Assembly: GCF_964194025.1 (NCBI RefSeq) | Contig: NC_134476.1 | Span: 54,126,001-54,190,000, forward strand | DNA from: Convolutriloba macropyga | Lineage: Eukaryota | Direction of reading: 5' to 3' | Length of the DNA stretch: 64,000 bases | Position numbers and translations under genes: made by a program | The notes under the pieces: model-generated | Databases searched by the model: none | What the model was told of the DNA's origin: nothing | The model's input: only the letters and a program-made list of their open reading frames with translations | Shown here: positions 13,301 through 62,733 of the stretch, piece after piece | Layout of the letters: each line of letters begins with the position of its first letter | Numbering within the stretch: the first letter of the stretch is position 1

Positions 13301-13745
13301 AACATTCAGTCTCCATCTCACATTTACAGTCAAAAACGTGTGTTTTGAAGCTAATGCTGCTTGATTTTGTTATAGGGAAGCGTCAGTTTTGTTATAGGGA
13401 AATCTGTAGAACCAGGCAAATGAGCAACTTGCACCACTAGATGTTAGAATTGTTCAAACCATTTTTGACATATCGGTAGCAAACAAATTTGTTTTGCTAT
13501 GCTTTTAACCCAGTGACAACCAATCTGACATGAAAAGACCAAAAATAAAAGGAGACTCAAAAAAGACTGTGGGAAAAACAAAAGGTAATAGATTGGGATC
13601 AAATTTTTCGTAGAATTTGTTTGTAAAACATATCGCAATGTTAAGAAAAACTGGGAATCTGTTCTCAAAAAATTAATTCCTACAAAATATGAATATAGGG
13701 ATTTAGTTCCCAACTCCCTTTTTTTGTGTTCCAAATAGCGGTGTT
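1179..13745. repeat. Tandem array of three near-identical ~4323 bp units (starts 1179, 5502, 9825; third copy has two internal deletions)
   Basis: The same sequence and the same short ORFs recur at +4323 offsets with only scattered substitutions. No recognisable protein is encoded. Confidence 0.97.
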
Positions 13746-17059: not shown

Positions 17060-20000
17060 TCACTTCGTCCTCCAGCTGGATGAACACGACTACAATGCTG
17101 CTGCGTCGCAAACTGTCGTGCTTTACAACGTGAAAGAACGAAATCTTGACAATGCAACAGAACATCAAAAATCTGAAATTTTGAACTCCATACAAATTTC
17201 TCCTAATATTGTGGTCAACTATTCCCGACTTGTTAAAAAGGGACCCGATCCCGCAGCTAAACCGCGGCCGGTTGAAATTAAATTGAACTCTGTTTACGAC
17301 AAACGACTCTTGATGACAAACGCCTATATGTTGAAAGACATTGGCGTGTTCGTGAAACCAAAGTTGAATTGGCGTGACCGATATAAGGAGAAAGCACTTC
17401 CTGGACTTAGATATAACCTAATCAACAAAGGCTTGGCACGAAACCTCATGCGTATCCGTAACTTGCAACTCTTCTATGATGGGAAATTACTTAACGACCA
17501 ACTTTCTGCCGATGAATTACTTAGTTCTCTTATTAGCCATATATCTTCCAAAGCTGATTGACTAATCAACTACAACATGCTCCTGTTTAATATTCGTGGA
17601 ATGAATACCCAAGACAAACTTGTAGATTTAGTCTACTTGTTGGATTTCTATCAAATTGATATTGCACTAATTACTGAAACATGGTTATCTCCACTATTGA
17701 ATGACTATTTTTGCTCCCTGTTTGGTGGTTTTAGAGTTTTATCTAGAAAAGATCTTAAAAATGCACCCCCTGGAGGTATCATTGCCATCTGTCGAAAAAA
17801 CTGTGAACTAGCTTTTCTCGACCTTCATATTGGTTTAGATTATGATTTTGCGACTGCTTTTCTAATAAGAATAAATTCAACCAGGATTGCTATTTTCATT
17901 CCTTGTTATCTACCCCCAGTATCCAGCCCGTACAATGTTCCGTTCGATTCTTTCAAAGAATTCTGTGATAAGACTATAAATCAAGCTACCCATATGTACA
18001 CTCCTGATGTGTTTACACTTACCTTATCTATTATGGGTGATTTTAATTTTCCTAACACTGACTGGTCTACAATGTATAGTTCAACTTATCGTGAAATGGC
18101 TTTTGTTGATTACTTTGGTTCACTGGGCCTCAGTGCTCATATTACGTCTGGAAAAACACATTTTCATGGAAATATACTTGACAACATTGTTTCAAATGAT
18201 GACAATATTCATGGGTTATCGATTAAGGACAGAACAGCTCTGAGTGATCATCTACCTATCCTTTTGAATTACTGCAATGCCTTGCACAAATCATGCGACG
18301 TGGAATCTTTCCAGTATTTTTTCTGAAATTATCAGCATCATATCAACTTCGAAACAACTTGGAGATCCTTCAATTTTAATAATTACCCTTGACCCTTGTG
18401 GAGAGAATGTTGATGGTTTTTATTTTTTTTGGCATGGAGTATTGACCCCTGTTTTCCTAGGAAGCGTAAGATACGGATGGTCTCACTTTTTTATTATAGC
18501 TCACATACGATACATTGTTTGAACAAATTAAATACTGCAAAACGAAAGTGTTCGAAAAATCCCTCGCGTATGAAACTGCAGCAGCTTAAGTCTCTGGAGG
18601 AAGATTACACTCAATCAATAGAACTCGATGAAGTTGTTTTCGTCAATGGATCATTAGCTTCAACTACAAACCAATGTTTCGCTCTTTTGAATAGTTTGAA
18701 GGATTCCCCAATTCCTAATCACATGTTTTTCAATAGTAAAGCAATTGACGAAAATGAAGTACCCGAATTTTTCAATAATTTCTTTGCATCAAATTTCAAT
18801 GACAAAAGACCACAGTTTTTGGTGATAACATAAAGTTAGAACACGTTCTCTCATCTTTTTCTGTTGAATCGATTATAAAAGATATCGTCAAAATCAAGGA
18901 ATCTTCCGCATTGACTCACGACGGTTTCCCAACAAAACTTCTGAAGAGTTCACCTTATCTGTTTGGTTCACTGTTGTATCCTTTGTTCTGTTCAGTTATT
19001 TTATGCCGTACGTTTCCGTCAATATGGAAGGTTGCTCGTATCACTCCTCTCTTCAGAGGTGGTTCTCGCAACAATATCAAATTTTATTGACCAATCAGCC
19101 TACTTCCAAAAGTATACCTGCTATTTGAAAGAATCATATTCAATTATCCTTATTCTTGCTTGAGTGAGGAGCTTCACCCACAGCAATTTGGCTTCCGGTC
19201 GCACAAAGGAGCAGTCCTGTAACTTTTGGATTACCTCGAAAAAGTTTTTAGCTGTAAATCTCAATACAAGTTTGCCATTTATTTTGACTATGAGAAGGCC
19301 TTTGATAAGGTCCCACACACTATCTTGGTTGAAAAACTTCGCCGTTTTAAATCTTGATGGTAATTTTTGCACACTTTTGGAGTCGTACCTTTGCATCAGG
19401 TATCAATTTACATAAGTCAATAAGTCGAAGTCGAAACTTCTTCCATGTCTTAGCGGTGTCCCGCAGAGCTCCGTACTGGGTCCCTTTTTATTTTTGGTTT
19501 TCGTGAACAATTTAACAAGCATTTTCCTTGATTCCATGGTTTGGTTGTTCGCAGATGACACTAAAAAGCTTTTCACCAACCTGAATTTCCATGACGATTT
19601 CTGGCGCCTTTATTCTTGGAATATCTGCAATGGAAAGGTTGCAAATATATGTAAGACTAAATGTTTGCACTTTAATGGCTCAGTTAAGATTTCTACGACA
19701 CAACATGAAGTACTGGAAAACGTCTCTTCACACAAGGATCTGGGTGTATACATCAGTAATGATCTGAAATGGGGTTTTCACGTTACTTCTAAACGCTGTA
19801 AAGCTCGACAATGTTTCTTCAGTCTGAAAGCGAAAATACCTTTCAATACTCCGTCTCATGTCAAGCTCCACCTTTACCGGAGCCTTGTCCTCTCCGTACT
19901 TTTATATGGGTTTCCTGCGTGGCATCACAATGTATCCATGCTTGAAAAATTAGAGAATTTCCAGCGTTCCTGCTTATTTTGGATATTTGTACGAAAATCA

Positions 20001-20445
20001 TCTTACCTGAAGCAACTTAAAGACAACAATTTTCTGCCACTCTGCTATCAACTCGAATATATTACTTTCTCTTTTCTATCGCAACTGATGTTAGATAAGT
20101 ACAACTATGATCACTCACAGTATGTAGTATTTCAGGAGCCTTCTCGGTGTTTGTGCGGATCATCCACAAATGTCCTGCAATTAAAGAACCACCATAAGCA
20201 CGCTAGCATCTCATTCTTCGGTCGTTCAGTTTTAATTGCCAACTATTTGTTCAGAAACAAAATATTCGATGGCTTTGACAGCTACAACAAGAAAGCTCTG
20301 AAGAGCTACCTCATGCGAAAAACATTTGATCCAGAAAGTACATGTAAATTCTTTATTTGCTGTGTCTGTAATTCATGCAAACTTATCAAGGGTATATGCT
20401 AAAATAATAATGGTTCTCGAAAGAGAATAAAGTCTCTCTCTCTCT
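17060..20445 (+). mobile_element. Decayed, 5'-truncated CR1-group LINE (ORF1 fragment, APE-RT ORF2 broken by frameshifts and stops, (TC)n tail)
   Basis: ORF1 C-terminal part at 17118-17561. APE motifs at 17577-18326 (FNIRG, ITETWL, GDFN, LDNI, SDHLP). RT remnants (DYEKAFDKV, GVPQSSVLGP, FADD). C-terminal CKFFICCVCNSC, then AATAAA and (TC)n at about 20427-20445. Confidence 0.9.
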
Positions 20446-21464: not shown

Positions 21465-21769
21465 GAAAAACAATTTCATATCAACTTTTTACTCTTTTTT
21501 TAAGCTAACAATGATGAGGTTGAGGAGGCTCATTTGATGTGAAAATGACCCCCGATAGAAAAGTGATCGACAGACCCGGAGGCCTAAAATTTGAAACCTT
21601 TAACTAAACTAAATGTGACTAATTTTCTAATTTTGTCTTTCGCTTTGTAAACCCTCTTCATAAATTTATTTAGTGGGGGGGGGGGGGGGAGTGCAGCGTG
21701 ATAACTAAATGGTTCTCCTAAATTTTGCTATCGTTTTAGTGTCTCAAATGAACTAAGTTGAATTGCACA

Positions 21770-22229
21770 ATGCTTTCGGCCAGAGGAGAAGACGCTGTCC
21801 GTTATGTGACTTTCAACCAGGACCACTCAGCGCTTTGTGTTGGATGCAATTCCGGGTTCAAATTGTTTTCTCTGAGCAACATTGAGAAGCTCGACGAAAC
21901 ATTTTACGAAGGAACTCTTACTAACGTTGTCATAGTAGAACGTCTTTACCTTTCGAGTTTGGTTGTAACTGTCAGCCAAAACACACCCAGACGTTTGAGT
22001 CTCTGTCACTTTAAAAAAGGGACTGAAATATGCAATTACTCTTATCCGAACAGAGTATTATCCGTGAAACTAAACAGGAAAAGATTAGTCGTGTGCTTAG
22101 TTGACAGCTTATATATTCACAATATTAAAGATATGAAAGTTGTGCACACAATAAAGGAGACTCCAGATAACCCAAGAGGTGTGTGCACTCTGTGTTCGTC
22201 AGATGACTGTGGCTACCTTGCTTATCCGG
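21770..22229 (+). CDS. WIPI2: WIPI1/2 (Atg18) PROPPIN, coding exon 1
   Basis: [49 protein letters not shown] and YLAYPG match WIPI/Atg18. Donor G|gtaaga at 22230, phase 1. Confidence 0.95.
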
Positions 22230-22574
22230 GTAAGATTTCCTCTGCTTAACAAGTTCTGACCCTTGTTTTGTCTTGATATAGTGAACTGTAACGGCAAATC
22301 ACTTTGGGTTGTTGTAAGTGAAGGCGCACGAGGGACAAAACACTGAATCAGTCGACAGTACTTATGTTATATCTGTTCTGTTATATAGTACTTTCTGGTT
22401 CTGTTACCAGGTTGTTCTATCAAAATTTTTATGTAAAAAAGGAATATAAGGAGTCCTGTCACTGAAACCTGTCACTGAGACGACGGATTACAAGACAGAG
22501 ACAACAATCGCCCGAAAACAGTGGACTCACAATCACTATTCAAAACTCCTGAAAAGTTTTAGCTGCTTACTCTT

Positions 22575-22866: not shown

Positions 22867-22934
22867 CTGCCTATTAAGTTATTCATCAACAATCCGTTAA
22901 GACAAATCAAAATCTTTTGCATGTGCTAGCCAAG

Positions 22935-23831
22935 ATGTCCTCAAGAGTTATCACGTGCCAATCTTGCAATCACAAGATTGCAAAGAAGGAAGCAAAATTC
23001 TCATGTGCCTACTGCAGCAAAGCAATGCACATGACACCCGACTGCACAGGCTTCGAACAGTCCAGTATTGAAGTCCTTGTCAAGTTAGAAGCAAATCTGC
23101 TTCACATCTGTAACGAATGCAGTGAAAATAAGACACATAAGTCCATCTTAAAACCTGCTGAACAGTCGAAATTGGAAGACGATCTAACAGACCTCCGAGA
23201 ACAAATGAAAAAGTTCCAGCAAATCATTGAAAACTCAAATGCAATGATCGAAAATGTAAAGAAAGACTTGACCGAATTAAAGTCAACTGCTCCCAAGAGT
23301 TATGCACAAGCTGTTGGAAAACTGCCCGGTAGCACAATTCGCGACGTGTCAAATGCAAACAACATTCCTGGTCTGGGAATTCGAATAAGAGGTATACCTG
23401 AGAGTAGAACCAAAACACCAGACGAGCGTATGCATTCCGACATCGAATCGGTTGAGCAAATCCTAGACTTCTTGAAAATCAAAGACAAACGCATGAGCAA
23501 AATTCATCGTCTCGGTAAATTTGACCCTGACAAAAAAGGGGCACGCACTATACTTGTTTGCATGGAAAACATCATAAGTAAAGACCTGATTCTGAAATCA
23601 GCTCACCTGCTAAAGGCCTACGAACAACCAATCTTCATAAGTCCTGAGCTGTCTGCAACGGACGCGAAAAAAGAAAATGAATGTCTGCGCATTCGCCGTG
23701 ATCTCATTGACAATCATAATTACAATAGCAGGCAAGTTCGTATTAGAAATCTCAAGGTGGAGCATAAAGTTGGAGACAACTGGGTTGTCTTTGAAAACGC
23801 ACAAAAAGAGAATACTGGTATCAACTGGTGA
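22935..23831 (+). CDS. LINE ORF1: PHD finger, coiled coil and RRM-like domain
   Basis: CQSC...CAYC...H...C...CNEC zinc finger, heptad-rich middle, IRIRGIPE and HRLGK motifs. Confidence 0.9.
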   Translation: MSSRVITCQSCNHKIAKKEAKFSCAYCSKAMHMTPDCTGFEQSSIEVLVKLEANLLHICNECSENKTHKSILKPAEQSKLEDDLTDLREQMKKFQQIIENSNAMIENVKKDLTELKSTAPKSYAQAVGKLPGSTIRDVSNANNIPGLGIRIRGIPESRTKTPDERMHSDIESVEQILDFLKIKDKRMSKIHRLGKFDPDKKGARTILVCMENIISKDLILKSAHLLKAYEQPIFISPELSATDAKKENECLRIRRDLIDNHNYNSRQVRIRNLKVEHKVGDNWVVFENAQKENTGINW

Positions 23832-23846
23832 CTATACACACTCGAA

Positions 23847-26675
23847 ATGCTTTCGTTCAATGTAAGGAGTCTGATGAAATTTGAGCGTCGCCTGAAGTTC
23901 TCAGACTGCTTGTCAACGCGAAGCTATGACATTTTATGCCTCACTGAAACATGGCTGACTCCTGATGTTCAAAACTATTCGCTCTTCCTACCTGCATACA
24001 CGATCTACCGAAATGACAGAATACCATGCGAACACGAAACGAAACACGGTGGCGTACTTATAGCAATCAGATCGACTATTATGCACGAACAAATTTTGAT
24101 TGACCTACATCTTGAGGATTTTGTGGTGATTAGTGTACAAACAAAACCACAGCCGACTCTCATATGCTGTTTGTACAGCCCCCCATCAGACAGCGACTAC
24201 ACCTGGTCGCCGCAACAGTTAGAAATTCTGCTCTCCAAAATATCAAATCATGCTAAAAGAATAGGCTACCAAGGCGTGTTCATTTGTGGAGACATCAACT
24301 TCTCCAAAACAGACTGGAACAACATGAGCTCCAATTCCGAGTGTGAAAACGCTGTTCTGGATGCTCTTTCGGAATACAATTTCCTGAACTACTCAAATCT
24401 TCAGTTAGACGTCATTCTGGCCAACAACCCTGACCAGATTGTCAAAACTGATCTTGACACCGATCTTTACAACTGTTACGCACTAAACGGCAAGCCATGT
24501 GCTGATCATCTACCGGTCAGTGTTACAGTAAACGCATTCCATAGCGAACTATACATTCTTCATCAAGTCAAATATGCCTTTAAGAAAGCGGATTGGGACG
24601 AATTGAATAAGGCTATAGTAGACAGTCCTTTCAACCCTTACTGTTTCAGTAATCTCGATTTCCTTGTCAAAAAATGGTACGAATGGATCTTCAGCCTCAT
24701 CGATCATTTCATTCCGAAAGTTACAAGACACAGGTCAACGCTTCCACCTTGGGTATCCAGCCGTACCTCACACCTGATGAAGAAGTTAGCTACAAAAAAG
24801 AAGCAATGGGTCTCTCCGGTCTTGTCAAAACTCCTGAAGTTGAAGAAAATGGAGCGTCAAATAAAAGAAGCCACAAATGAAGATTTGAAAATGTTTGAAA
24901 CCGAAATCTTTCAAAGTCGACAGTTCAGCAACATCCAGAAGTACCTACGTTGTGTTCGCAAGTCACCAAACGTTCCTCCTGTCGTCACTCTGTCCACTCA
25001 AAAAGCCGAAACTGACCAAAAAAAGGCCAAATTATTCAATCAGTTTTTCCAAAGTGTTTTCAACGAGAAGCAACATCACTGCATAACTTTTGAGAACAGA
25101 GGCCTCAATAGTCTCCTTTTCTCCGAAACAGAAATCGAGCACATATTGGAACACTTAACTCTGAACAAGTCTACGGGACCTGACAACATCGGAAACATTG
25201 TTTTAAAAAAGTGCGCCTTCTCACTCAGCAAGTCACTCCTCCTCCTATTCCAAACAATCTCGAATAAAGGAATCTTCCCCAGATACTGGAAAATCAGTCA
25301 AGTTACGCCAGTGTTCAAAGGGGGAAACAAATCAGACACTACTTGTTATCGACCGCTTAGTTTACTCTGCTGTGTGTCAAAAGTCCTTGAGCGTCTCATC
25401 TTCAACACACTATACAAGTTTTGCCAACACCGCCTACACGAAAACCAATATGGATTCCGAAAAAATAGGTCAGCAGTGGTACAATTGTTGGTCTACCTTG
25501 ATTCAATTTACCAAAAGTACGATGACCCCACAGTAGACAACCTGACAATTCTGTATCTCGACTTTGCTAAGGCCTTCGATAAAGTACCGCATGACTTGCT
25601 TATACTGAAACTCCAGTCCTTTGACATTGGCGGAAAGTTGTTGCAACTCATAAGCTCCTACTTGAGCGTCAGGGAGCAAAATGTTAAAATAAATGCGGAA
25701 ACATCCACTCCAGTAAGTGTCAGCAGTGGAGTTCCACAAGGCTCCATTCTCGGACCACTGCTCTTTCTGCTGTTCATAAATGATCTACCAGCTTCAGTGT
25801 CAAATTGTGAAAGTTTTGGATATGCCGATGATTTCAAGATAATTGCACTGACTCAGAGCCAACTCACGATTGGTGCCATGACTATACAGAATTGGTGCTC
25901 CGAAAACAAAATGCAACTGAACACCTCTAAATGCAAGCTCCTCAACATAAAAGGCACTTTGACAGCAGCAATAGACAACCTTGAAATTGAACCGACGAAT
26001 CTTCAGCGCGACCTAGGACTATGGATCACCTCAAATCTCACGTGGAACGATAACTGTACCACGAGAACGAAGAAGGGATTAAGTGCACTGTTCCAACTGA
26101 AACGAAACCTGTCTACAAACAGCACGCGAAACAGTAAGCTAAATTCTTACGTTGGTTACGTTGTGCCAGTCCTGACCTACTGCTCTCAAGCATGGCAGCC
26201 GAACAAGTCGAATCTTGCGAAGTTTGAAAGGGTGCAGGAAATTGCTACCAAGTGGATACTGAATGCAAGTTTTGAATACAAAGATCGACTTCTACAGCTA
26301 AAGCTGCTGCCTCTCAGCTTATATGTCGAAATGCACAATCTCCTGCTTCTGATATCATTGGATAGAAACGAATACGACGTTGTTGTTGATCTACCTAGAG
26401 TCACCGAAGATAAAACTCGACAGCATACAAGAGGAGAACTGACGATCGGAACGAATCGACTCTACAAAACCGATGAAAACTTCTTCCATCGTACAAAATT
26501 ATTATACAATATTATTATCAGAGTGTACACCAGCTACGGAAAATATCTCAATAAAGACACCATCTCCAAAATCTACTGGGACTACTTTCTGAGAAAATAT
26601 GACAAGAGGGACAAATGCACTTGGCGAATTGTTTGCAAATGTGACCACTGCAATAACTGGAAAAAACTAGACTAA
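23847..26675 (+). CDS. LINE ORF2: AP endonuclease plus reverse transcriptase (942 aa)
   Basis: FNVRS, LTETWL, GDIN, DHLP, then YRPLSLL, LDFAKAFDKV, GVPQGSILGP, YADD, and C-terminal CTW-x3-CxCxxC. Confidence 0.97.
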   Translation: MLSFNVRSLMKFERRLKFSDCLSTRSYDILCLTETWLTPDVQNYSLFLPAYTIYRNDRIPCEHETKHGGVLIAIRSTIMHEQILIDLHLEDFVVISVQTKPQPTLICCLYSPPSDSDYTWSPQQLEILLSKISNHAKRIGYQGVFICGDINFSKTDWNNMSSNSECENAVLDALSEYNFLNYSNLQLDVILANNPDQIVKTDLDTDLYNCYALNGKPCADHLPVSVTVNAFHSELYILHQVKYAFKKADWDELNKAIVDSPFNPYCFSNLDFLVKKWYEWIFSLIDHFIPKVTRHRSTLPPWVSSRTSHLMKKLATKKKQWVSPVLSKLLKLKKMERQIKEATNEDLKMFETEIFQSRQFSNIQKYLRCVRKSPNVPPVVTLSTQKAETDQKKAKLFNQFFQSVFNEKQHHCITFENRGLNSLLFSETEIEHILEHLTLNKSTGPDNIGNIVLKKCAFSLSKSLLLLFQTISNKGIFPRYWKISQVTPVFKGGNKSDTTCYRPLSLLCCVSKVLERLIFNTLYKFCQHRLHENQYGFRKNRSAVVQLLVYLDSIYQKYDDPTVDNLTILYLDFAKAFDKVPHDLLILKLQSFDIGGKLLQLISSYLSVREQNVKINAETSTPVSVSSGVPQGSILGPLLFLLFINDLPASVSNCESFGYADDFKIIALTQSQLTIGAMTIQNWCSENKMQLNTSKCKLLNIKGTLTAAIDNLEIEPTNLQRDLGLWITSNLTWNDNCTTRTKKGLSALFQLKRNLSTNSTRNSKLNSYVGYVVPVLTYCSQAWQPNKSNLAKFERVQEIATKWILNASFEYKDRLLQLKLLPLSLYVEMHNLLLLISLDRNEYDVVVDLPRVTEDKTRQHTRGELTIGTNRLYKTDENFFHRTKLLYNIIIRVYTSYGKYLNKDTISKIYWDYFLRKYDKRDKCTWRIVCKCDHCNNWKKLD

Positions 26676-34151: not shown

Positions 34152-35183
34152 ATGTTTGAGTTTCGACGTGGAGTAAAACGGTGTGTGACAATTTATTCTC
34201 TGGCGTTCAGCAACGATTCACTCCTTCTTGCCTGTTGCAGTAACACTGAAACTATCCACATATTCAAACTAGAATCAGCCTCAGCCAGCAGAGGCTACTC
34301 TAAATCAGTAGCTTCAAATGGACCTCACAGTGCGGCCTCAAATCCAAGTTTAGACGACAATTCAAATAGTCGGACATGGATAGGATATTTCGGTCAGGCA
34401 ATTCTGGACAGTGCTTCCTATTTACCAACAAATGTAGGGGAGATGTTTACTCAAGGAAGAGCAGCGTTTCAAGCCAGGATACCATTCTTTTCCGAAGATT
34501 CCACCTACTTTAATACGTGTGCTCTGACATGGATCAATAAAATTTTACGGCTTGTCGTTGCTAGCACCTCTGGTCAGCTTTACATGTATAACGTGGATCT
34601 ATCAGATTCAACAGGTGAATGTCCTCTGATAAGGCAGCATAAAATTGACGGCAGCACTGGCCTGGGTGTGGGAGGAAGTCGCAAATCGAATGGTTCCAAC
34701 AACAACATCTCAAGAGGTTCCAATTCAAGTCCGCTATCAGAAAACTCTAAAAGGGTTTCAGGTGCTTCTAATAGTCGATCGAACTCGGCCACATCGTTTG
34801 ACTATGCTGCTACTCAAAACAACGTTGTCACCACCGAAGACTCAGTGAGTCCTCTAGGTGGTGTTGACATCCCTCCATCTCCGATTGCAAGGTGGTCGGA
34901 GTTCGATGAAAGAGATCCAAAATTTGCTCCGAGTGGAGCACCGTTAGCATATCCGTACACAGCGCCTGTTGTGGGATCATTTGGCTCGTCATTGAATGAC
35001 AGGCAAGGATCATCACCAGGCAGTAATTCTGCCAATCAGGGAGGTGTAACCTATGCCGGTATGTTAGGAACGTCGCCTTCGGGTGACAGAAGTCTTGATG
35101 ATGTCTCTGCCCGGTTCAAAGGAGGCATCAAAATTGACGATGAAAACGAGTTTCCGCCTATGACTATGCATACGGATGATTGA
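34152..35183 (+). CDS. WIPI2: WIPI1/2 coding exon 3 (terminal); spliced product 557 aa
   Basis: tag|ATG acceptor. Contains the FRRG phosphoinositide-binding motif, SNTETIHIFKL, a Ser/Asn-rich tail and C-terminal EFPPM. Confidence 0.95.
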   Translation: MFEFRRGVKRCVTIYSLAFSNDSLLLACCSNTETIHIFKLESASASRGYSKSVASNGPHSAASNPSLDDNSNSRTWIGYFGQAILDSASYLPTNVGEMFTQGRAAFQARIPFFSEDSTYFNTCALTWINKILRLVVASTSGQLYMYNVDLSDSTGECPLIRQHKIDGSTGLGVGGSRKSNGSNNNISRGSNSSPLSENSKRVSGASNSRSNSATSFDYAATQNNVVTTEDSVSPLGGVDIPPSPIARWSEFDERDPKFAPSGAPLAYPYTAPVVGSFGSSLNDRQGSSPGSNSANQGGVTYAGMLGTSPSGDRSLDDVSARFKGGIKIDDENEFPPMTMHTDD

Positions 35184-48004: not shown

Positions 48005-50042
48005 GTATGCAATTTCACAATTTTTGGTAAACTTTTGGAGTCAATGGTGCTATGATTCCACCGGTCTGTGTGTGTTATTTATGTGGTTTTGTTCCACTTA
48101 GCTAGAGCTATATTGACGTTGTAATTGTTTTCCTTGCCGCGTGTCAAAAAATATGGAAATTGTATTTTGTTGAAGTTGTACCACGAACAGTGGCTGCTTT
48201 TTCCAAAAATGCTTTACCAGAATATTTTTTCTTTCTCTGGTTGAAACCAATTGTTCATTTCGGAAGATTTCACGCAACTTTTCGCTGCTTTGGTCCCATA
48301 GTTCAAAGTTAAACTACAACGTAAATACCCCTGAAAAAGTTTTGGCTAAGATTTTTTGATGAATGGGGATCCTTCTGCGTTATTCTGGAACCAAATAACA
48401 GCGCTGTTCTTGATAGATTTTTTGAAAAAAAAACATGGGCAGTTGGAACTTGGGTGTGTCAGTTGGGAAACATGGGCGGTTCTCGATTGCAGAATACTAC
48501 TTGTCAACAACCTTAATGCAATCTCTCAGAGTGCTAATCACTCGTGTTGGATTGCTATCGTTTAAAAAATGGTATTATCTCAGCTTATTTTATGGAGAGC
48601 TCATAGTTACTTAAACCATGTTTCTTCATTAAATCAATTGAGACGGAAAAAGTATCGTCATGTTTAAAACATATTCTTCCTTACCGTTCTAATTAGAAAG
48701 TTTCGATTTTATGATTTTGCTCATTCAGAGCGCCAACTCATTTTGAAAGCATTAAAAGCGCTAATTTGATTACGGGCCCTTGCGCAATTTTTTAGTTTTC
48801 AAGACAGTTAGAAAAAAAAACACGTATGAAAGCAAGTTTTTTCAAAATTTATTTTTAGAAAATTTATTGTAACGTGTCAATGGAACCTTTTGATAAAAAG
48901 AGCTGATAGTTTTCTAACGCATTTTGAATTCTTTTTAATTGCTCTCGAACGAATTTTAAACATGTTGGTCTTTTTTATGCAAATATTTTCTTGACCGTTT
49001 TAACTTTTCGGGAAAAGTGAATTTTACGCCGTTGACGGTTCATTTTGCGTGATCTAAGTTCTTCTCATTAACAAGTGTCAGCAGCTGAACTCGACTGGCG
49101 GCAGTTCGCTACTAAGAGTCAATTAAAAAGTGTGCCAAAATTTTTTTCACTTTAAGTTTTATGAGTGGTTATAGTGTTATCTAATAACCTCTAATGACGT
49201 CATTTGAAGCCCCCATTAGTGAATTTAGTTACTCCTCGCACCAGACTGAAGCAGGCTGCAATATATTTGAGCTCACACTATTTGTTCCAGAGCAATTGTC
49301 CGACGTTAGTGAAAAAAAGGTCCTTAACAAATAAAAAAAACATAGCAGGACAAGCCCTGAGATACAATGCAAAGGACTGAATGAGAAACTTAGAACTACT
49401 GCATCTGACAGCAGATCGATTGAACAATGCCAGGCAAAACGGCAAAGTTCCAAAATTAGAGTGAAATGAATGAGTTATTATTCCAATTAATTAGAATCGA
49501 CTGTACAAAAAATAGGTCAACACATACCTCCTCGCCTATCAAACCTTGGTTCCCTAAAAATGGTTTCGTTTTTTTTCTTTCACATAGCATTATTTTCGGC
49601 TTGATGTTACCTCAAATTTAAAGCCAACACAAATGAAACAGTTGCTCGAATAACTTGAGAAGCAAGACTTTTTATAGCACTCAACGATGTTCATTATTAG
49701 ATTCTTGTGCTCTAAGAGAAAGTTGAAAACTGGTGCAGACAGCTTTGTGGGAACACTTGGACTTTCGAGTTGTTTTGAAAGAGTTCTGTTCATTTTAAAC
49801 TGCTTTTAGTTGGCGTGATTTTTTTTGTGCTATCCAAAAGTTCTTTTTTTTTGTTCAATTTTTTTGGTCGGCCATCAATCAGTGGTTCCGTGGCAACTTT
49901 TTTGAAACAATGTCTTACTGGGTTACAGGCGACCAGAAGGCTCATCGTTTTATCAGGGAAAATGGCAAGGAAGACAGTGTTCTTCATGCAGTGTCATTTT
50001 AGTTAGAATGTTAATGTGCAATTTGAGCTTGTGGCCTCTAAT

Positions 50043-50474
50043 TATACTCGCCGCTTAAATGGGAGTATACAAAGAGAGTTTAACTTTAAAGTTCTAAAGA
50101 CAAAAGGAATGGAATTAAAAATTTTATTATAAAAACAGTTAAGGCGGTACAGTATGAATAATGAGTTAAGCAATATCGATATCATATGTTTACTTTATCA
50201 ATCTATTGAGCAAGTGTGTGGTGACAATTGAAGAGAGGAATATCAGATGGCTAACTAAATTGGAATTGAAGTGAACAAATGGTTGAAGTGAACGATACTG
50301 AATAACTGAATAACTGGTTGATATAAAAACTAGCTTCCTATATATAGTCAGCAAAGTGGGAATTAATTTCCCATATTTTTAAAAGTGGGATAAAACATCC
50401 CATATTAGTTTTTGGGATAAAAGTTCCCATTTTATTTTTGGGATAAAAGTTCCCATTTTCTCATTTTCAGTACA
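50043..50474 (-). repeat. 3' LTR (TGTACT...AGTATA termini; AATAAA at 50128-50123)
   Basis: Identical to 61633-62064 except one substitution (50091 vs 61681). Terminal hairpin tatactc-N13-gagtata. Confidence 0.97.
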
Positions 50475-50618
50475 TCCAACCGGCGACTTAGCGGGTTTTG
50501 TTGTAACTAGCTGGATATACAAAGTTAGACATAAAAATTTAGATATAAAAATTTACAGACATGTTTAAAACAAAATTAAGAATAAGATGGTTTCTAGAAT
50601 AAGAATAAGTTTCTAGTT

Positions 50619-51236
50619 TTAGTTTCCTTCAAGTTGATTTATTCTGTTTTGCAAAAATTTTATTCGGTTCATTAGATTCGCGTTCTTCTTCTTCTCTCGT
50701 AAGAAGTTTTGCTCCAGTCCCAGCGTGTATGTGTCCCGCTCGTTGTTGAGGTCTGCGGTTATGAACTGGTAGGGGACTGTTAAGTTCTGTCGGTCGAGGG
50801 ATATATTCTTTAGTCGATATGTCTTTAATTTTGAGTTATAAGATTGGATCTTATAAATATTTCCCTCTGGTAGCACTCTGTATTGGAGGCCCCAGTCAAA
50901 GTTTGGGTGTCCTCTAAATTGCCTATTCCTCGTTCTTTCTTCGTTGAATTTCTGTTTTTCCAATCTCTGGCTCATGCTAAGGATTCGTGGCTGTATAGGG
51001 CAAATTGTAGCTGTGGGTTTCATGTGGGTGGCTGTCGGAGCAATCGTAACTTCTGTTAAATCCAATTTTTTTTCTCCTCTCCCGGTATTGATAGTGTGAA
51101 TACTCTTCCCTGGTGTAGTTCGTACTGGTTGTTGTTCTGGTGGTTCCTGTTGCTGGCCCATCAGTTCCTCGAAGGTATCGGGGAGAATGAAGTCATCTAG
51201 GTCTGGCATGTCATCGTCACCTTCGTATCCTAAATT
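50619..51236 (-). CDS. 3' accessory ORF / predicted exon 2 (acidic start, basic middle, leucine-zipper C-terminus)
   Basis: 196 aa ORF from the ATG at 51209, extendable by 9 codons to the acceptor ttatttctatttttag| at 51237 in phase 0. Confidence 0.75.
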   Translation of the reverse strand, partial: NLGYEGDDDMPDLDDFILPDTFEELMGQQQEPPEQQPVRTTPGKSIHTINTGRGEKKLDLTEVTIAPTATHMKPTATICPIQPRILSMSQRLEKQKFNEERTRNRQFRGHPNFDWGLQYRVLPEGNIYKIQSYNSKLKTYRLKNISLDRQNLTVPYQFITADLNNERDTYTLGLEQNFLREKKKNANLMNRIKFLQNRINQLEGN

Positions 51237-51359: not shown

Positions 51360-53570
51360 TTATACGGGAGAAATTGGATTATCTCCATTTTCTTCTATTG
51401 CAACATTGTTTTCATGTCTTTCATTTCTAATTGCACTATATAATGGGTGCGGAATATGTGGATATAGATTAAAGTGTGTTTCTTTCATTTCAGTTACTAA
51501 ATGTTCAGCATCATCTGGCTGTTTCTCATTGGTTGTCTCATTTTTAAAGATAGAAGTCATAATAGAAGTGAACAGAATATTGTAAGTGGCAAATAAGATG
51601 ATTTTGCCAAAATTAACAGAAGCTCCTGTTATTTTATGTATTTGTAGGGCTTTTACAATTGTTACAACAATTTGAATAATAAATTTCAAGAAAAGAAAAG
51701 CGGCAAAATAAATTCCACATTGCTCTAAGATAAATTGTGTATAACCGAACATTTCTATATAGCGGTTATCAAAGAAATTAGGAGAAATAAAAGAGTCTAA
51801 GTAGACTGTTCTCATTGGATAGTTAAGATAAGTTCTATCCTCACTTTTAAAATTATCTTGAGAAACAACAAGTTCTTTAGAGAAAGTTTGTATAGCATCT
51901 TTCATTTCGTTATTGAATTTAATTCCGCGCCAGAATTTCTTTAATTCTTGATCAGTAAATAAATATATTTCATCACTATCCTGGAATTTGTATTTAGTTA
52001 ATCTCTGTGGAGCAATATTAGGTTCAAAAACAGAGGGTCCTTTGACTCTAGTTATACCCGGTGTTAATTCAACCCAGGAGTTATCATCTTCAATATCTAA
52101 TTGAAATAAATTATCGTGTTTATCTACACATGATCGTTCTTCAGCGCTAGTGTATGTCTTTCTAGTAATTGGATCAACGAAATGTATTTTATTTTGATAC
52201 ATTATTGGAATTCTATTATAACATTTCTCCATAATTTGTAAGGGTGAAAAATACTGTGGGCAATGATATAGCCATGCAACATTATCATTAGTCTCTAAGA
52301 ACATTGAGCGATTATTTGTTAGTAAGAATCCAGCCATACGTGGATTACTATGCGAATAGACTAAATTTGTTCTCTTTATAGCACGTTCTAACTCACAATC
52401 GGTTTTTATCATTTGTAAATCTAAAAGCTGTAGTCTTCTTATATTAGTATATTCGTAATAGTCAAATTTCGTTCCCATATGGGCTTCATAATTTATTCCT
52501 GAGTGCAAATCAATATTTGGCTCTCCATTTGTATATGAAGTTCGTTTTACGAGCAATTTGCCTCTTGTGCTATTTACATAAGTATTTTTTTACAACATTT
52601 GGAATTGGTTTTTTGCCTTTCCTGTATCCATATCGAATCCTCCTTCATAATGTATATATAATGAGCTATAAGGAGTAGGATAAACTATTTTGTTTGAGTC
52701 GCAAATTGACTGTGGATTATTATAAATCTGAAAAATGAAAGTATTTCGTGGCCCTTTAAATGGTTGCGCACGTCTAATAACAGCTTCTGTTGATTCAGGT
52801 TCAGTTTCATATTCTCTTACTATATAATATTTTCTATCTATTTGTATCATTTTTACTGGAGCTGTGTGTAATTCTTCTATTATACAATTTTCTCTATTTT
52901 CCCATGTATATGCATAAGGATCAGTTGATCCACTGTCACAGCCATTTTTGTTTAGGCTACAAGGCAGAGGAATATTATAGTGGTTATTTACCGTTCCATC
53001 TTCTAAATTTACTAGTAATTTAATATCTTGCATATATGTCTCGTAAGTATCGTGGTAGATCCATCCTGTTTCTGTGCACTCATTACTGTATTTATCACTA
53101 ACGTCGCCCTTATTTATAACTGTTTGTTTCTTTACATTTTTTGTAAATGGAACTTTGTTAGTGTTAATAGTCGCGGAGCCTGTTTTCTTAGCTTCGAGAC
53201 ATTGCTCGGCTGTTAATTTAATATCTGAGCTAATAGTTGCTTGTGTAGCGGATAAACCACTATCGTCAAAAGTATCACAATACCACTTTAGGCGTTGATG
53301 TGTAGCTTTACACATAGTTGCTTCTAATTTAGTCTTATAATTGCGCTGCATAATAGTAGCAGTTGCCTCACTTACTTTTATTTTCTCAGTATCGATATCG
53401 CATGGAGCTATTTTGTTTAATGAGTACATTTTATTAGAATCTATTTTAGAACAATCAAAGTGTCCTACTTTTACTTTCTTTAGAGTATTTTTAAATTCGG
53501 AGTCTGCGTTGGCTCCATTTATTGAAAGTAGTGTGGAAATTATTAGAGGTACAATTACAGGTACTCTCAT
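51360..53570 (-). CDS. env: Env-like class III fusion glycoprotein (chuvirus/Monjiviricetes-like), ~736 codons, with one in-frame TAA at 52592-52590
   Basis: Signal peptide MRVPVIVPLIISTLLSINGANA. Cys pattern FDC, CKATHQRLKWYC, LPCSLNKNGC..YTW, CELER, LYHCP, CYNRIPI, FVDPITR. C-terminal TM. The two track ORFs are in the same frame, separated by a single stop. Confidence 0.85.
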
Positions 53571-53703: not shown

Positions 53704-53922
53704 TTAATATTCAATTATGTTAGTGAAGGTATGAATGCTTGAAGGGATTTTAAATTCGAAGTTGAATTTTAAGGCAGCGAATAGACTTGATGTGTCTTTC
53801 ACTAGAAAAGTCTCTGTGGTTAAATCGGAAAAGAGGAAAGTAGCGTAAATAACGCTTAAGTCGTTAGCAGGAAAGAAAGTGGATTTCAATTTGGCTAGTT
53901 TGCCGTTGATTCTGATAAGCAT
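53704..53922 (-). CDS. 72 aa ORF just downstream of the internal promoter (uORF or small accessory protein)
   Basis: First ATG after the predicted TSS. Its TAA is followed after one base by the ATG at 53702. No recognisable motif. Confidence 0.35.
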   Translation of the reverse strand: MLIRINGKLAKLKSTFFPANDLSVIYATFLFSDLTTETFLVKDTSSLFAALKFNFEFKIPSSIHTFTNIIEY

Positions 53923-53949
53923 TTAAATGCTGACTAAGAGATGAAGAAG

Positions 53950-54240
53950 GAAGAATGATTTTTTGTGTTTTTGCTCCCTTATTTATAGTGTGCAAAATGG
54001 GCTGTTTCATCTCACTTTTAGAAATATGTCTCAAATATTCCCATTTTTAGTGACGGTTTCTGTCTTTTTATTGGCTGGGAAGATATTCCCATTTTTTAGA
54101 CCAGTTTGTGCAATTTCATTGGTTTTCATAGTTTGGGAATGTTTATCCCATTTTTCTATTCAAGTTTTCATTTTTTATTGGTTTTTAGAGTTGGAGTTTC
54201 TATTCTCCTTTTATTTATAAATGATAGAATTTGATTGGCT
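53950..54240 (-). promoter_or_regulatory. Predicted internal promoter between pol and env
   Basis: TATAAATAAG starts at 53987 and Inr TCATTC has its A at 53956 (-31 spacing). Four CCAAT boxes (~54070, 54118, 54177, 54234). TGGGA-N6/7-TCCCA at 54076 and 54134 plus two degenerate copies. Confidence 0.7.
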
Positions 54241-54276
54241 AATAATAAAATCTTTTTGTTCTGTGTATTTAAATTT

Positions 54277-57200: not shown

Positions 57201-59940
57201 AACCAGTGCCTAAGTTAGACGAGTCAGCATGTATATGAAATGGGTAGTTCGCATTTGGAATTGCTAGTGATATATCATGTACGAACTTTTCTTTTAGTAT
57301 ATTGAATACTTTCTCGTGTTCTTCTTGCCATTTGAAATTTACATCGCCTCTTGTTAAATCGTACAAAGGCTTAGCATCTATATGAAAATTTATCACATAG
57401 TTCGAGTAGAATCCCATTGCTCCTAATACGCTAAGAACGTCAGTTTTTGATTCGGGAGTCTTTAAGTTTCTAATGTCGTCAATACGCGATATAACTGGGG
57501 AAAGTGTATTTTCTGATATAACGTGTCCGAGAAATTTTACTTTTCGTAAGAAGAACATTGTTTTATCCGGTGCGGCTTTTAAGTTAGCCTTTCTTAATAG
57601 AGCATGATATTCTTTTATTATATTGAACATTTCCTCTTTAGTATTAGATTGTAGTAGTGTATCGTCAATATATGTAATAGCCTTCTTTTCTTTTATAAGA
57701 GGTCCGAATGCATAGCGCATTAATTTACTAAAGAAATTGGGTAGTGGTTTTAATCCGTAGAAGCCGACTTGATAAGTATACTGTCTTCCTCCTATTATAA
57801 ATCCTGTTAACTTTTGTGTTTCGGGCGTTAGCGGCACTTGATGATAAGCACAAGAAAGGTCGCTGCTTGTAAAATATGATCCATTCACTCGGGTTATTAG
57901 GACTTGTAGTGGTTCTAACGGCCAACTTGAATTACTTGTGTCAGTAATAGAGTTTAGATAACGAGCATCTATTACTAGTTTGACGTAATCCTTCTTAGGA
58001 AGGATTATGATCGGGTTAACGAACCAGCTATTCATATCGTCATGTTCATCTAGTTCTCTTATAATGCCTGCTTGTATTAACTCGTCCATCAGTAATTCGA
58101 GTTTATCCCTTAAATGGAAGGGTACTTTACTAGGTCTTTGCTTTTTGAATTCTGCATTTTTTATTAGGGATATATTAAATTGTTGTTTAGTACGGCCAAT
58201 GTCATATTTATGATGTGAATATACATCGTTGTCTGTAAGCAGTATATCTGCAAGTCGAAAGAATTCGTTCTCAGTCAAGTCGGTTTGTGTAAAATCGAAT
58301 TTTTGTAGGAATTCCATTTTATTGAAGTGAGTATTTTGTCCAGCATGTACACTTGTAGTAAATTTATCTATTAATTCTTTTACTTGATATTTTGAGCGGA
58401 ATATTGGAAATTGTTCTCTTGATTTGGGTTGGCATATCCTTTTTGCCTCTTTAGAAAAGTCAGTGGCAATATCATCCTCGCTTTTACATTTCTCCACTAG
58501 TTCTCCTGCGGATAGCTCCATTATTTCGGCGATATGCTCGTCAGTGAGAGGACGATTTTCTATATTGTTTATTAACTGTAATTCTTTGCCACTAATGTAT
58601 ACATAAATAGTTATTCCCGTGTGCTTAAAGTGTTCTTCTAGTTCTTTAGCTATTCTTTTCCACAATCTGGGGTCTCCGCCACATGCTATCTTAGGCATAG
58701 CAATACACCTTATTCCGTCAAGCATAAGTGTCTTTTGTAGTTCACAAAATACTGAACAAGTTTTACTTGCTTCGTATGGGGGAGAGTTATAATATTCCTT
58801 CATTACAAGACTATATATAATCTGCTGACTATACTCATCTTGAAAATGTATTAGTTCGTGGTCTACCTTATTCTCCGATCCTATACTTTTAAAGTATTGT
58901 AGAATATTCCTCTTTAAGTTGGGGTATCTTTTAATAAGGGAGGCAGTAAAGCCTTTGTCTAATACTAAGTCTCTAGATATAGTATGGATAATAGGCATAT
59001 TAGCGTCGAATATCGAATGTTCGTCAAAGTTAATATACCTAATACACTCAGCAGTTAGGTCAGTGGATTCGGATATAGTATTTGTAGTTGTATTTAGCAT
59101 AAAACAACTATCAAGCTCTTCGCATTTATTTATAACAGAATAAGTAAATTCGTTGCAGTCACGAATACTGTATTTTTGTGTATTGTTTGTAATATCACAT
59201 ATAGTAAATCCAATTATCCCTTTATTTAGTGTAACTTGATGATTTTTGTGGTTTTCGATGAGCAGGGGAATTTGTTTTTCGTTCTTAGTACAAATAGTAT
59301 TTATAAAGCACAACTCGGTTTTTACTGTAGTCCTATTAGGTACAAAAGAAGTGCCTTTCGGAAATATATCTTGCTCACTACACTTGTGCTTGTAGAGAAA
59401 TGTAGACTTAGGTGGGATATATAGAGGCTGGTGTATTATCACTGCGTTCAATTTAGAGACTTGGGGATATTCCTTTTCATTATTTAGCGAGCCATAACTA
59501 AGAACTCCTTTATCACTAGTCTTCAGTTTTACTGCTGGAATATCAAAGTATAATGCTTTAAGAAATGTATGACAAAAATCTACTCCTAATAAATTAGAAG
59601 TTTTCTCCTCAGTAACCCATACTCTATGATTTGCTTTATATTTCCCGTCTGTATCAAAGTATGAAGTTAGTATAGTGTAGCCTATCATGCGTATTTCGGA
59701 ACCGTTATAGGTTCTTGTTTTATTGCCTGAAGTCTGGATATTTATTTGTTGTCCCAATTGGTTAAGCTCAAGAAATGTTGGGTAATTTATTATAGTGCAA
59801 GTTGATCCTGGGTCGATCATGAATTCTATTTCTAAGCCACTATGTTTTTTATTGTCTCCGGTAGCAAAGTGATATAAGTTCAAGAAAATTCGGGCTTTGG
59901 GATTTGATGTGATATTCTTATTTTTCGGAGACCGTATTAG
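54277..59940 (-). CDS. pol: Pol via -1 frameshift: protease, macrodomain, RT, RNase H, integrase
   Basis: IDPGS protease site, TARG1-like macrodomain at ~59043-58597, RT YIDD at 57672-57661, RNase H ADSS/RELCG/DHRP, integrase HHCC, D-D-E and GPY. The frame is open up to the slippery site. Confidence 0.96.
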   Translation of the reverse strand, partial: LIRSPKNKNITSNPKARIFLNLYHFATGDNKKHSGLEIEFMIDPGSTCTIINYPTFLELNQLGQQINIQTSGNKTRTYNGSEIRMIGYTILTSYFDTDGKYKANHRVWVTEEKTSNLLGVDFCHTFLKALYFDIPAVKLKTSDKGVLSYGSLNNEKEYPQVSKLNAVIIHQPLYIPPKSTFLYKHKCSEQDIFPKGTSFVPNRTTVKTELCFINTICTKNEKQIPLLIENHKNHQVTLNKGIIGFTICDITNNTQKYSIRDCNEFTYSVINKCEELDSCFMLNTTTNTISESTDLTAECIRYINFDEHSIFDANMPIIHTISRDLVLDKGFTASLIKRYPNLKRNILQYFKSIGSENKVDHELIHFQDEYSQQIIYSLVMKEYYNSPPYEASKTCSVFCELQKTLMLDGIRCIAMPKIACGGDPRLWKRIAKELEEHFKHTGITIYVYISGKELQLINNIENRPLTDEHIAEIMELSAGELVEKCKSEDDIATDFSKEAKRICQPKSREQFPIFRSKYQVKELIDKFTTSVHAGQNTHFNKMEFLQKFDFTQTDLTENEFFRLADILLTDNDVYSHHKYDIGRTKQQFNISLIKNAEFKKQRPSKVPFHLRDKLELLMDELIQAGIIRELDEHDDMNSWFVNPIIILPKKDYVKLVIDARYLNSITDTSNSSWPLEPLQVLITRVNGSYFTSSDLSCAYHQVPLTPETQKLTGFIIGGRQYTYQVGFYGLKPLPNFFSKLMRYAFGPLIKEKKAITYIDDTLLQSNTKEEMFNIIKEYHALLRKANLKAAPDKTMFFLRKVKFLGHVISENTLSPVISRIDDIRNLKTPESKTDVLSVLGAMGFYSNYVINFHIDAKPLYDLTRGDVNFKWQEEHEKVFNILKEKFVHDISLAIPNANYPFHIHADSSNLGTGCILIQQFPDRKRIVSANSRVFDKAEQKMSPQHRELCGIISALQTYEFYLIGSPFPIYLFCDHRPILFLWSRRGQLSHRFFKYQVVLTKFQNLKIIYTEGKNLAFPDLLSRQVPIEEAKKFQIEHKTIPKDINFYTSDLKPVSYSVLHKEDKTNSSNDSYPILAQVQGGTRKVMNISDNDFSISDAPEGFTDSCNAIHNVADYFKFGKNINQIVKLTDSKQSDNTYSEIQEEVNYVELDDSGYNDDEFSDVIDNLVDPTLIHALEKAKEIYKERTKHYTIIESTALHNENVKSDCSDLLTKLTEFAKKAQLDIDTILQEQNKDPVLHIVRKWIESGKEPEHYYMTRQCKALKAYKSIYKLLLLDESYKLLCYNKPNENGSFELKICIPISLFLKCFELAHSNPMSGHRGDASTLNNISRFFYWPGMYKWVTMLIHDCLDCQKNKSKRHDLNEAPLQQWGELETTPFHTIHIDHKGPFRPSSNGKHYCLVVVDSFSRYVQVYAVKSATSDETIKQMEKFITIFGIPQHIVHDNGTAFMSSDFVNWTFELGITLRPRTAYSPWTNGKVEIQNKHLTNYLRHFLNTTGNNWAKFVDKFAFAHNTAVNYSTGYTPYEIIFGIKPQIPISLRLGLLRDNKKNCISQYCQDLPSHTHCKNSCKNEKVDNLLQNRLSNTVLQRETDFKNIYCNTYTRCRQVTNKAHEYRNRFKLGRPISIGSKVLLENHSKSLLISKKLQSLRSGPYTVTKHITNTTYEIQGDETQQKRVVHRNHIVEYFPKEREIQPLIADYTTVYAEPEQFYDNYNRHYINKFNTTQPSNFMHYMPWPVFNNVETPPQLPNSRPTTTTSTNTTTRCSSNNPPIDSGIDTLGLRTLFNTQQQVTSPSKSFRPQHISTPYPRGPLSYPQTPHSPQPLAHDISPFNFQSSSQVITTQPTTPLANKSVNEKLYPTEPRRSGRQAVATKLFNDPIPWDALKDKKK

Positions 59941-61611: not shown

Positions 61612-61629
61612 GCCTCACTGGTCGCACCA
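61612..61629 (-). other. Primer binding site TGGTGCGACCAGTGAGGC
   Basis: Begins with TGG, 3 nt after the 5' LTR. The complement GAGCCTCAC-N5-GCACCA looks like a tRNA 3' end (Ile-UAU/Met-like T-arm); identity is uncertain. Confidence 0.85.
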
Positions 61630-61632
61630 ATT

Positions 61633-62064
61633 TATACTCGCCGCTTAAATGGGAGTATACAAAGAGAGTTTAACTTTAAAATTCTAAAGACAAAAGGAAT
61701 GGAATTAAAAATTTTATTATAAAAACAGTTAAGGCGGTACAGTATGAATAATGAGTTAAGCAATATCGATATCATATGTTTACTTTATCAATCTATTGAG
61801 CAAGTGTGTGGTGACAATTGAAGAGAGGAATATCAGATGGCTAACTAAATTGGAATTGAAGTGAACAAATGGTTGAAGTGAACGATACTGAATAACTGAA
61901 TAACTGGTTGATATAAAAACTAGCTTCCTATATATAGTCAGCAAAGTGGGAATTAATTTCCCATATTTTTAAAAGTGGGATAAAACATCCCATATTAGTT
62001 TTTGGGATAAAAGTTCCCATTTTATTTTTGGGATAAAAGTTCCCATTTTCTCATTTTCAGTACA
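61633..62064 (-). promoter_or_regulatory. 5' LTR: four TGGGA-N7-TCCCA palindromes, TATATATAG at 61936 and Inr-like CCAGTT (+1 at 61905)
   Basis: Palindromes at 61947, 61976, 62003 and 62029. The TATA box is 31 nt upstream of the Inr A. Confidence 0.85.
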
Positions 62065-62733
62065 TAATAATTGCTTCCTGAGGTCAATAATCGTAGTTTC
62101 TGGTTGGTTTACTCCTGTACACGCGAGTGCACTCGGAACTCATAAATAAGTTCGAAAGAAGGCAATATTTGGTTCTCAGTTGTTGCAAATGGATTTGTGT
62201 GATGCGTGACACGGTTATTTACCATGTTCAGTTTCATGAGACGATGACTGGCCCAAGGGGGATTTTTGTTCCGGTGACTCTAATTTATGTACAAACGCTA
62301 CCTTCGTTGAGCTTTAACTATTAAATTTTCTGTCACAATTTGTAAATGATTTGTGACAATTTAGTATTGCCAGTTATGATTGGAAGACTGAATTTTTGTG
62401 CTCTTTATGTCTGCATGGGGCTTTGTTACAATTAGTTTAAATTAAAATTGTGCTAATGCTGCCCTTCAGCATTTTATGTGTCCCAAAGTTGGAGTTTGTA
62501 TTTTAATAGTAAAGATTTGAATCCATTTTCAGAGGATTTCTGCTTGTTTGATAGCCAATGAAACGAGATTTGATTGCCGAAAATTATGTTGCCTCCGAAA
62601 ATAACTTATTATTGCAGCAACTAAAACCAATTGTGACGCTTTATGCAAATTTTAGATAAATTGTATGCGGATAATTTTGTTTCATCTGCATTTTCTGACT
62701 ATAAACATCCAAGAAGGCGTTGTTTTTTTGCAG

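Follow-up and report, generated by a model that had tools for sequence, protein, structure and literature searches.

The locus studied here raises the question of how a Ty3/gypsy retrotransposon comes to carry a class III envelope gene, and what an env broken by a stop codon says about the lineage to which the copy belongs. The element lies in a stretch of 64,000 nucleotides from Convolutriloba macropyga, hereafter the window. With a probability of roughly 0.85, we read it as a very young, unfixed insertion of a gB-type errantivirus. Its lineage has likely long carried a class III fusogen, predicted to serve passage of particles from cell to cell; env of this copy was likely broken by slippage, and most sister copies are whole.

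Anatomy of the element and its envelope protein

The 12-kb element lies on the minus strand of the window and carries a class III envelope gene (Table 1). Its gag, pol and env frames, env being broken in this copy, all lie within an LTR pair together with a primer-binding site, as in gB-type errantiviruses. The two LTRs differ at 1 of 432 bases, so the near identity reported in the first-pass annotation holds. A 14-nt pattern from the primer site matched tandem tRNA arrays, in which ARAGORN identified tRNA-Met(CAT) in 8 of 9 genes, and reverse transcription would be primed by tRNA-Met. These arrays have a period of about 0.9 kb and are located in the same genome at C1 ~77.67-77.77 Mb and C4 ~55.02-55.05 Mb. 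No canonical polypurine tract was seen in the window element.

Table 1. Features of the element, in window coordinates
Feature	Position	Strand	Description or basis
Target-site duplication, 4-bp	62065..62068, partner 50039-50042	.	flanks the LTRs
5' LTR	61633..62064	-	432 bp, ends TG...TA; four GGGA-N-TCCC palindromes, then TATA box
Primer-binding site	61613..61629	-	complementary to the 3' end of host tRNA-Met(CAT)
gag frame, 431 aa	59937..61232	-	position and conservation in sister families
pol frame, 1896 aa	54277..59967	-	protease, macrodomain, RT, RNase H, integrase (H2C2, rve, p58_C)
TARG1/OARD1-like macrodomain	58597..58989	-	between protease and RT; phmmer to human TARG1 structures
pol-env spacer	53715..54276	-	two GGGA-N-TCCC palindromes as in the LTR, TATA box, pyrimidine-rich AG
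env N-terminal half, 374 aa	52593..53714	-	hydrophobic leader and class III domains I-II
In-frame TAA breaking env	52590..52592	-	frame analysis and copy comparison
env C-terminal half, 409 aa	51360..52589	-	long central helix, crown region containing Cys, two hydrophobic segments and a cytoplasmic tail
ORF4, 205-codon frame	50619..51236	-	N-terminus acidic and disordered; small beta-barrel of five strands predicted; coiled coil at the C-terminus
3' LTR	50043..50474	-	LTR pair comparison

The gag label is based on the position of the frame and its conservation in the sister families, since no significant Pfam match was obtained; the dN/dS of the frame is 0.11-0.16. The frame ends in a T-TTA-AAC heptamer and pol follows in the -1 frame, and Gag-Pol would be produced by -1 frameshifting at this site. 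The Pol domains are arranged in the order PR-RT-RH-IN, which is the Gypsy/BEL order, with a weak Pfam match for the protease. The best solved-structure match of RT-RH is the RT of yeast Ty3 (E 2e-34; next family 3e-21). The BEL/Pao marker Peptidase_A17 (PF05380) was absent from window pol at E up to 1; at many other loci in the same genome it reached scores of about 170 bits. Because Ty3 RT is the best structural match and the marker is absent, Pol is assigned by its sequence to Ty3/gypsy and not to BEL/Pao, in agreement with the Gypsy-type order and motifs recognised at first reading. Genome-wide, at least 150 BEL/Pao Peptidase_A17 loci were counted, many of them within long open frames.

The envelope protein had been annotated as a chuvirus-like class III fusogen rather than an F-type protein, with bounds at 51360..53570. 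The frame actually starts at 53714, and the assignment to class III was borne out. Both halves lie in one frame, separated by a single TAA, and each alone exceeds the cut-off of the Pfam family Monjiviricetes_fusion (PF24664; 42 and 82 bits, cut-off 27), aligning in order to profile positions 25-169 and 309-630. The X read-through sequence scored 113 bits (E 9e-33) and contains all of the Cys spacings and motifs listed in the first-pass annotation, and none of 14 control genomes gave a match in the search with this family. The suggested Foldseek comparison with class III fusogens returned class III matches, the best being chu-like and xinmovirus glycoproteins and herpes gB. The nearest viral glycoproteins are only 12-17% identical to the window env; the X read-through gave no match in a sequence search of the PDB at E up to 10, and none of 29 pattern matches of the env alignment in viral contigs was confirmed. 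Neither half matched an F-type Pfam family and the furin motif R-X-K/R-R is absent, so that this env is not the baculovirus F-like protein with a furin site that characterises F-type errantiviruses. It has the leader, anchor and conserved Cys bridges of a gB-type class III env, and seven diverged env families all retain the leader, the anchor and the full set of ectodomain cysteines. Env is predicted to be a membrane-anchored trimeric fusogen.

An interrupted env in a spreading family

A DNA search for copies of the element gave at least 41 matches in the genome, and 37 copies besides that of the window were compared. The env frame is open across the TAA site in 30 of them; of the rest, 5 did not pass the in-frame test and 2 carry a stop within the interval. 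A single env frame of 783-784 codons is found in 14 of the 19 closest copies. Two small compensating indels near the stop set the window apart from 34 of the 37 copies. The upstream indel is also present in 3 of the others, and both indels in 1 of these, a copy of a different LTR subtype. A stop private to the window copy was considered and rejected, as this one copy (1/37) has the same break. The TAA did not arise as a point nonsense change; it is an out-of-frame triplet that the indels shifted into frame, and it is not a fixed signal because 34 of the 37 copies lack the two indels. The first-pass annotation was thus right that the stop is present and disrupts env; two compensating indels, not one changed base, brought it about. 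It had also proposed to look for the TAA in other copies and in the reads, a stop fixed in all copies implying read-through or a two-part protein. With 30 of the 37 other copies open at the site, this implication is rejected, and both read-through and a two-part env protein are unsupported. The recurrence of the break in a copy of another subtype would fit slippage at homopolymer runs.

Compensating indels within homopolymer runs are also typical of long-read errors, which would make the stop an assembly error. In 4/4 short-read runs, however, contigs identical to the window were recovered at each indel site, and for this reason an assembly error is improbable, although separate contigs do not place both indels on one molecule. 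The four runs come from one study, in which two samples were sequenced, and the source may be among them. Contig depth was 26-50 at one indel site and 50-84 at the other; unique flanks had a depth of roughly 24-75, which puts the sites at about one- to two-locus depth. The break might instead be functional: slippage would yield a secreted N-terminal half that serves as a decoy or blocks the receptor, or else read-through of the stop would occur. The N-terminal half does have a leader and no anchor, and the upstream indel recurs in three copies and the double change in one of another LTR subtype. Such a role is nevertheless highly improbable: 34 of the 37 copies are without both indels, and frameshifts and stops are scattered over pol and env of the copies, so that recurrence at homopolymer runs is expected from replication slippage.

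The insertion itself is recent. Among the 19 closest copies, one of which has no LTR pair in the compared stretches, 15 of 18 LTR pairs have at most one mismatch and 15 of 18 are flanked by a matching 4-bp duplication; gag, pol and env are all intact in 5 of the 19. The empty insertion site of the window element was recovered in 4/4 short-read runs at a depth of 35-53, about one haplotype of the flanks, and its joint has 4 shared letters in all four. The presence of the empty site in every run indicates that the insertion is unfixed, and together with the near-identical LTRs this indicates that the family is actively spreading. For env, dN/dS came to 0.16-0.22 in comparisons with five older copies; two closer copies, which offer few differences, gave 0.32 and 0.61. 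For RT it was 0.06-0.13. Env is under purifying selection, which shows that the spreading lineage uses it.

Selection on env makes an infectious lineage, as suggested in the first-pass annotation, plausible. Purifying selection indicates use, not infectivity, and Env could be kept for a role inside the cell or of benefit to the host, such as budding, vesicle traffic or interference, with the element spreading only within cells. We consider this rather unlikely, since the leader, the complete set of ectodomain cysteines and the anchor persist across seven diverged families, and since the selection acts on the element's own lineages and not on one domesticated locus. The reading of env as a fusogen predicted for passage between cells is therefore preferred.

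Origin of the envelope and relation to published elements

Searches at the protein and family level revealed further env families in the same genome. Seven families (A-G) were compared, the window element belonging to family A, and representatives of the other six each have a pol homologous to window pol (RT 60-88%). In family B (L077 / L079), about 4 kb separate pol and env and contain an antisense frame of 184-195 codons. The comparison of RT and env phylogenies proposed at first reading was carried out with 7 RT-RH and 8 env sequences, all from these seven families of this genome. Both trees separate A, B, C from D, E, F, G with support of 100/100, and G branches first within the latter group in both (87/85 and 82/89). 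End branches measure 0.6-0.8 changes per site for env versus 0.06-0.15 for RT. Because the two trees share their splits, env has long diverged together with pol.

The survey of Chary and Hayashi (eLife 2026, PMC13524379) comprises 1,512 env-carrying Ty3/gypsy elements. According to its main text, gB-type env is as widespread as F-type across animals, the chuvirus-like glycoprotein of mosquito BEL/Pao elements also adjoins gypsy pol, with 114 elements obtained in the corresponding search, and the association of env with Ty3/gypsy is argued to be ancient. As described there, gB-type errantiviruses share with the window element the gag-pol-env order, a Ty3/gypsy Pol, LTRs and a tRNA primer site, as well as a gB-like env that according to the authors resembles Chuviridae glycoproteins. 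They likewise occur as multi-copy, young insertions, and a furin site is not needed. The combination of gypsy with a chuvirus/gB-like env is thus an already published class, of which the window element is a member. What sets it apart from the elements as described there is a macrodomain of the TARG1-like kind within Pol, together with a conserved ORF4 downstream of env. The word "macro" has 0 matches in the main text of the survey and, where shown, matches only species names in its supplements; the 12-mer of the window primer site has 0 matches in its tables, and xenacoelomorph names have 0 in its supplements. An actively spreading family is useful here, as cell entry by the envelopes of gB-type retrotransposons is a question that the main text of this defining survey raises.

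Other systems share single traits with the element. Anakin, a mosquito BEL/Pao element (Dezordi 2020, PMC7642597), is reported there as likewise an LTR element with a chuvirus-like class III glycoprotein; unlike Anakin, the window element has a Ty3/gypsy Pol that matches Ty3 RT best and contains no Peptidase_A17. Gypsy fragments beside chuvirus-like glycoproteins have been noted without clear capture, in the part of PMC10084718 that treats them. The glycoproteins of Monjiviricetes, chuviruses and xinmoviruses and herpesvirus gB (PF24664; PDB 2GUM, 5V2S) have the same class III fold and match the profile. Compared with them, the window env is only 9-17% identical, and its gene belongs to a retrotransposon near which there is neither a viral polymerase nor a nucleoprotein. 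Drosophila gypsy, an F-type errantivirus that according to PMC13524379 serves as the model for infection of the germline from the soma, has the same gag-pol-env Ty3/gypsy organisation; its env differs from that of the window, which is class III, has no F-type Pfam match and lacks a furin motif.

The Gypsy-type pol had led the first-pass annotation to propose an independent env capture. In its strongest form, this would be a lineage-specific capture of a chuvirus or Monjiviricetes glycoprotein, or a transfer from BEL/Pao, apart from the published gB-type errantiviruses. Chu-like and xinmovirus glycoproteins are indeed the best viral structural neighbours, BEL/Pao elements are plentiful in this genome, and the published survey, whose main text gives no global tree of gB-type env, leaves room for several old captures. 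The identity of only 12-17% to the nearest viral proteins argues against it, as does the congruence of env and RT across seven families of one env type, with env end branches of 0.6-0.8. Moreover, every other retrieved env locus with enough upstream DNA adjoined a homologous gypsy-type pol, the Cys layout of domains I-II matches by eye the insect and planarian C1 rows of PMC13524379, and the pairing is presented there as ancient and widespread. We therefore find an independent capture unsupported and unlikely, and retain a long-standing association of env with pol.

A macrodomain within Pol and a constrained frame after env

The segment between protease and RT matched human TARG1 structures in phmmer (E 4e-6), and in sister family B it matched Pfam Macro just under the cut-off (E 2.5e-4). 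ESM Atlas gave no usable match for this segment. Lys84 and Asp125 are described as binding and catalytic residues of TARG1 (PMC5087735), and their equivalents are retained in 3/3 families with the domain (A, B, C), so that macrodomain homology and both residues of the TARG1 type are present together, as in human TARG1/OARD1 (PDB 4J5Q, 4J5R). The domain has a dN/dS of 0.14-0.25 and is absent from families D-G. The Pol macrodomain likely removes ADP-ribose tags, judging from its sequence. Delivered with RT and integrase, it would strip ADP-ribose marks by analogy with TARG1, and this would blunt a PARP-type defence of the host. If a TARG1-like eraser in Pol is confirmed, it would point to ADP-ribosylation as an animal defence against retrotransposons. 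A precedent among retroelements is offered by fish epsilon-like ERVs with macro-domain ORFs (PMC4977317); as far as that account goes, the fish domain is a separate ORF, whereas here it lies within the Ty3/gypsy Pol polyprotein. Literature searches, with subscription journals and Repbase mostly outside their scope, returned no description of a macrodomain in the Pol of an LTR retrotransposon. The macrodomain and ORF4, neither found described in these searches, set the clade apart as a variant.

ORF4 lies downstream of env in families A, B and C, with 29-40% identity between families, and homologues were found only in these same few families. Its core has a dN/dS of 0.02-0.03 between subtypes, the lowest measured. 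Constraint of this strength on an accessory gene suggests a regulatory complexity in Ty3/gypsy like that of retroviruses. The structural model contains five strands at 118-161 (pLDDT 66-80) and a long C-terminal helix; its best Foldseek rows are PWWP, Tudor, KOW and SH3 barrels, all at E > 0.001 (best 6e-3). Pfam assigned no family to the window ORF4 and gave only weak coiled-coil matches for its relatives, and ESM Atlas gave no usable match. ORF4 may act as an accessory dimer that binds nucleic acid or chromatin. The frame has no Met in 288 codons in family B, its first Met is at the start of the core in family C, and in family A it opens right after a T-rich AG. On these grounds we regard ORF4 as a probable spliced exon; when pyrimidine tracts were scanned under strict settings, an acceptor preceded it in just 1/8 loci. 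The two palindromes of the pol-env spacer, a number reached in 0 of 2000 shuffles, are kept in an older family A copy and absent from 6/6 other families. The spacer is a possible internal promoter or splice acceptor, and env and ORF4 would be expressed from sub-genomic or spliced RNA.

Family G has a post-env frame of 561-611 codons (L096:1-1684 -, L099:7999-9831 +). Its N-terminus is acidic, two of its segments resemble ORF4 and a long coiled coil is predicted; no Pfam or PDB match was obtained. Pairwise BLASTP aligned the frame to ORF4 (E 7e-5). The case for homology is weak, because the ORF4 profile missed the 561-aa frame at E 0.01 and hhalign gave a probability of 13%.

The 3' end of the family is mosaic, as a comparison of window 50043-51236 with loci L021-L076 showed. 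The window LTR/ORF4 type is shared at 99-100% by 15 of the 37 other copies, and a second 3' type in another 15 has an LTR of 83-86% and an ORF4 of about 90% identity, yet an env 97-100% identical; the remainder comprise 6 older types and 1 cut-off copy. LTR and ORF4 appear to be exchanged together as a module. Tandem partial duplications of the env-ORF4 end of the element were also seen at loci L011/L017, L061 and L064.

A more ambitious reading would make these families a "complex" infectious Ty3/gypsy clade. Besides the class III fusogen, it would possess a captured, catalytically intact TARG1-type eraser in Pol that defeats PARP-based defence, and a spliced ORF4 with a Tudor/KOW-like barrel and a coiled coil, the most constrained region measured and swapped with the LTR between sub-lineages, that regulates the element's own RNA or promoter. 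We regard this as a tentative proposal that is more doubtful than not. If true, it would parallel the complex retroviruses in an unrelated lineage.

Elsewhere in the window, exons of a PROPPIN/WIPI2-like autophagy gene were located at 21752-22249 and 34152-35183 (+); for this gene, human WIPI2 is a better match than yeast Atg18. Between these exons, at 22878-26675 (+), lies what reads as a near-complete LINE, with a Cys-rich finger in ORF1 and an endonuclease-RT in ORF2. By the same reading, a degraded relative lies upstream at 17031-20402 (+). Positions ~1179-13600 hold a tandem repeat whose unit, about 4.3 kb in length, is present in three near-identical copies.
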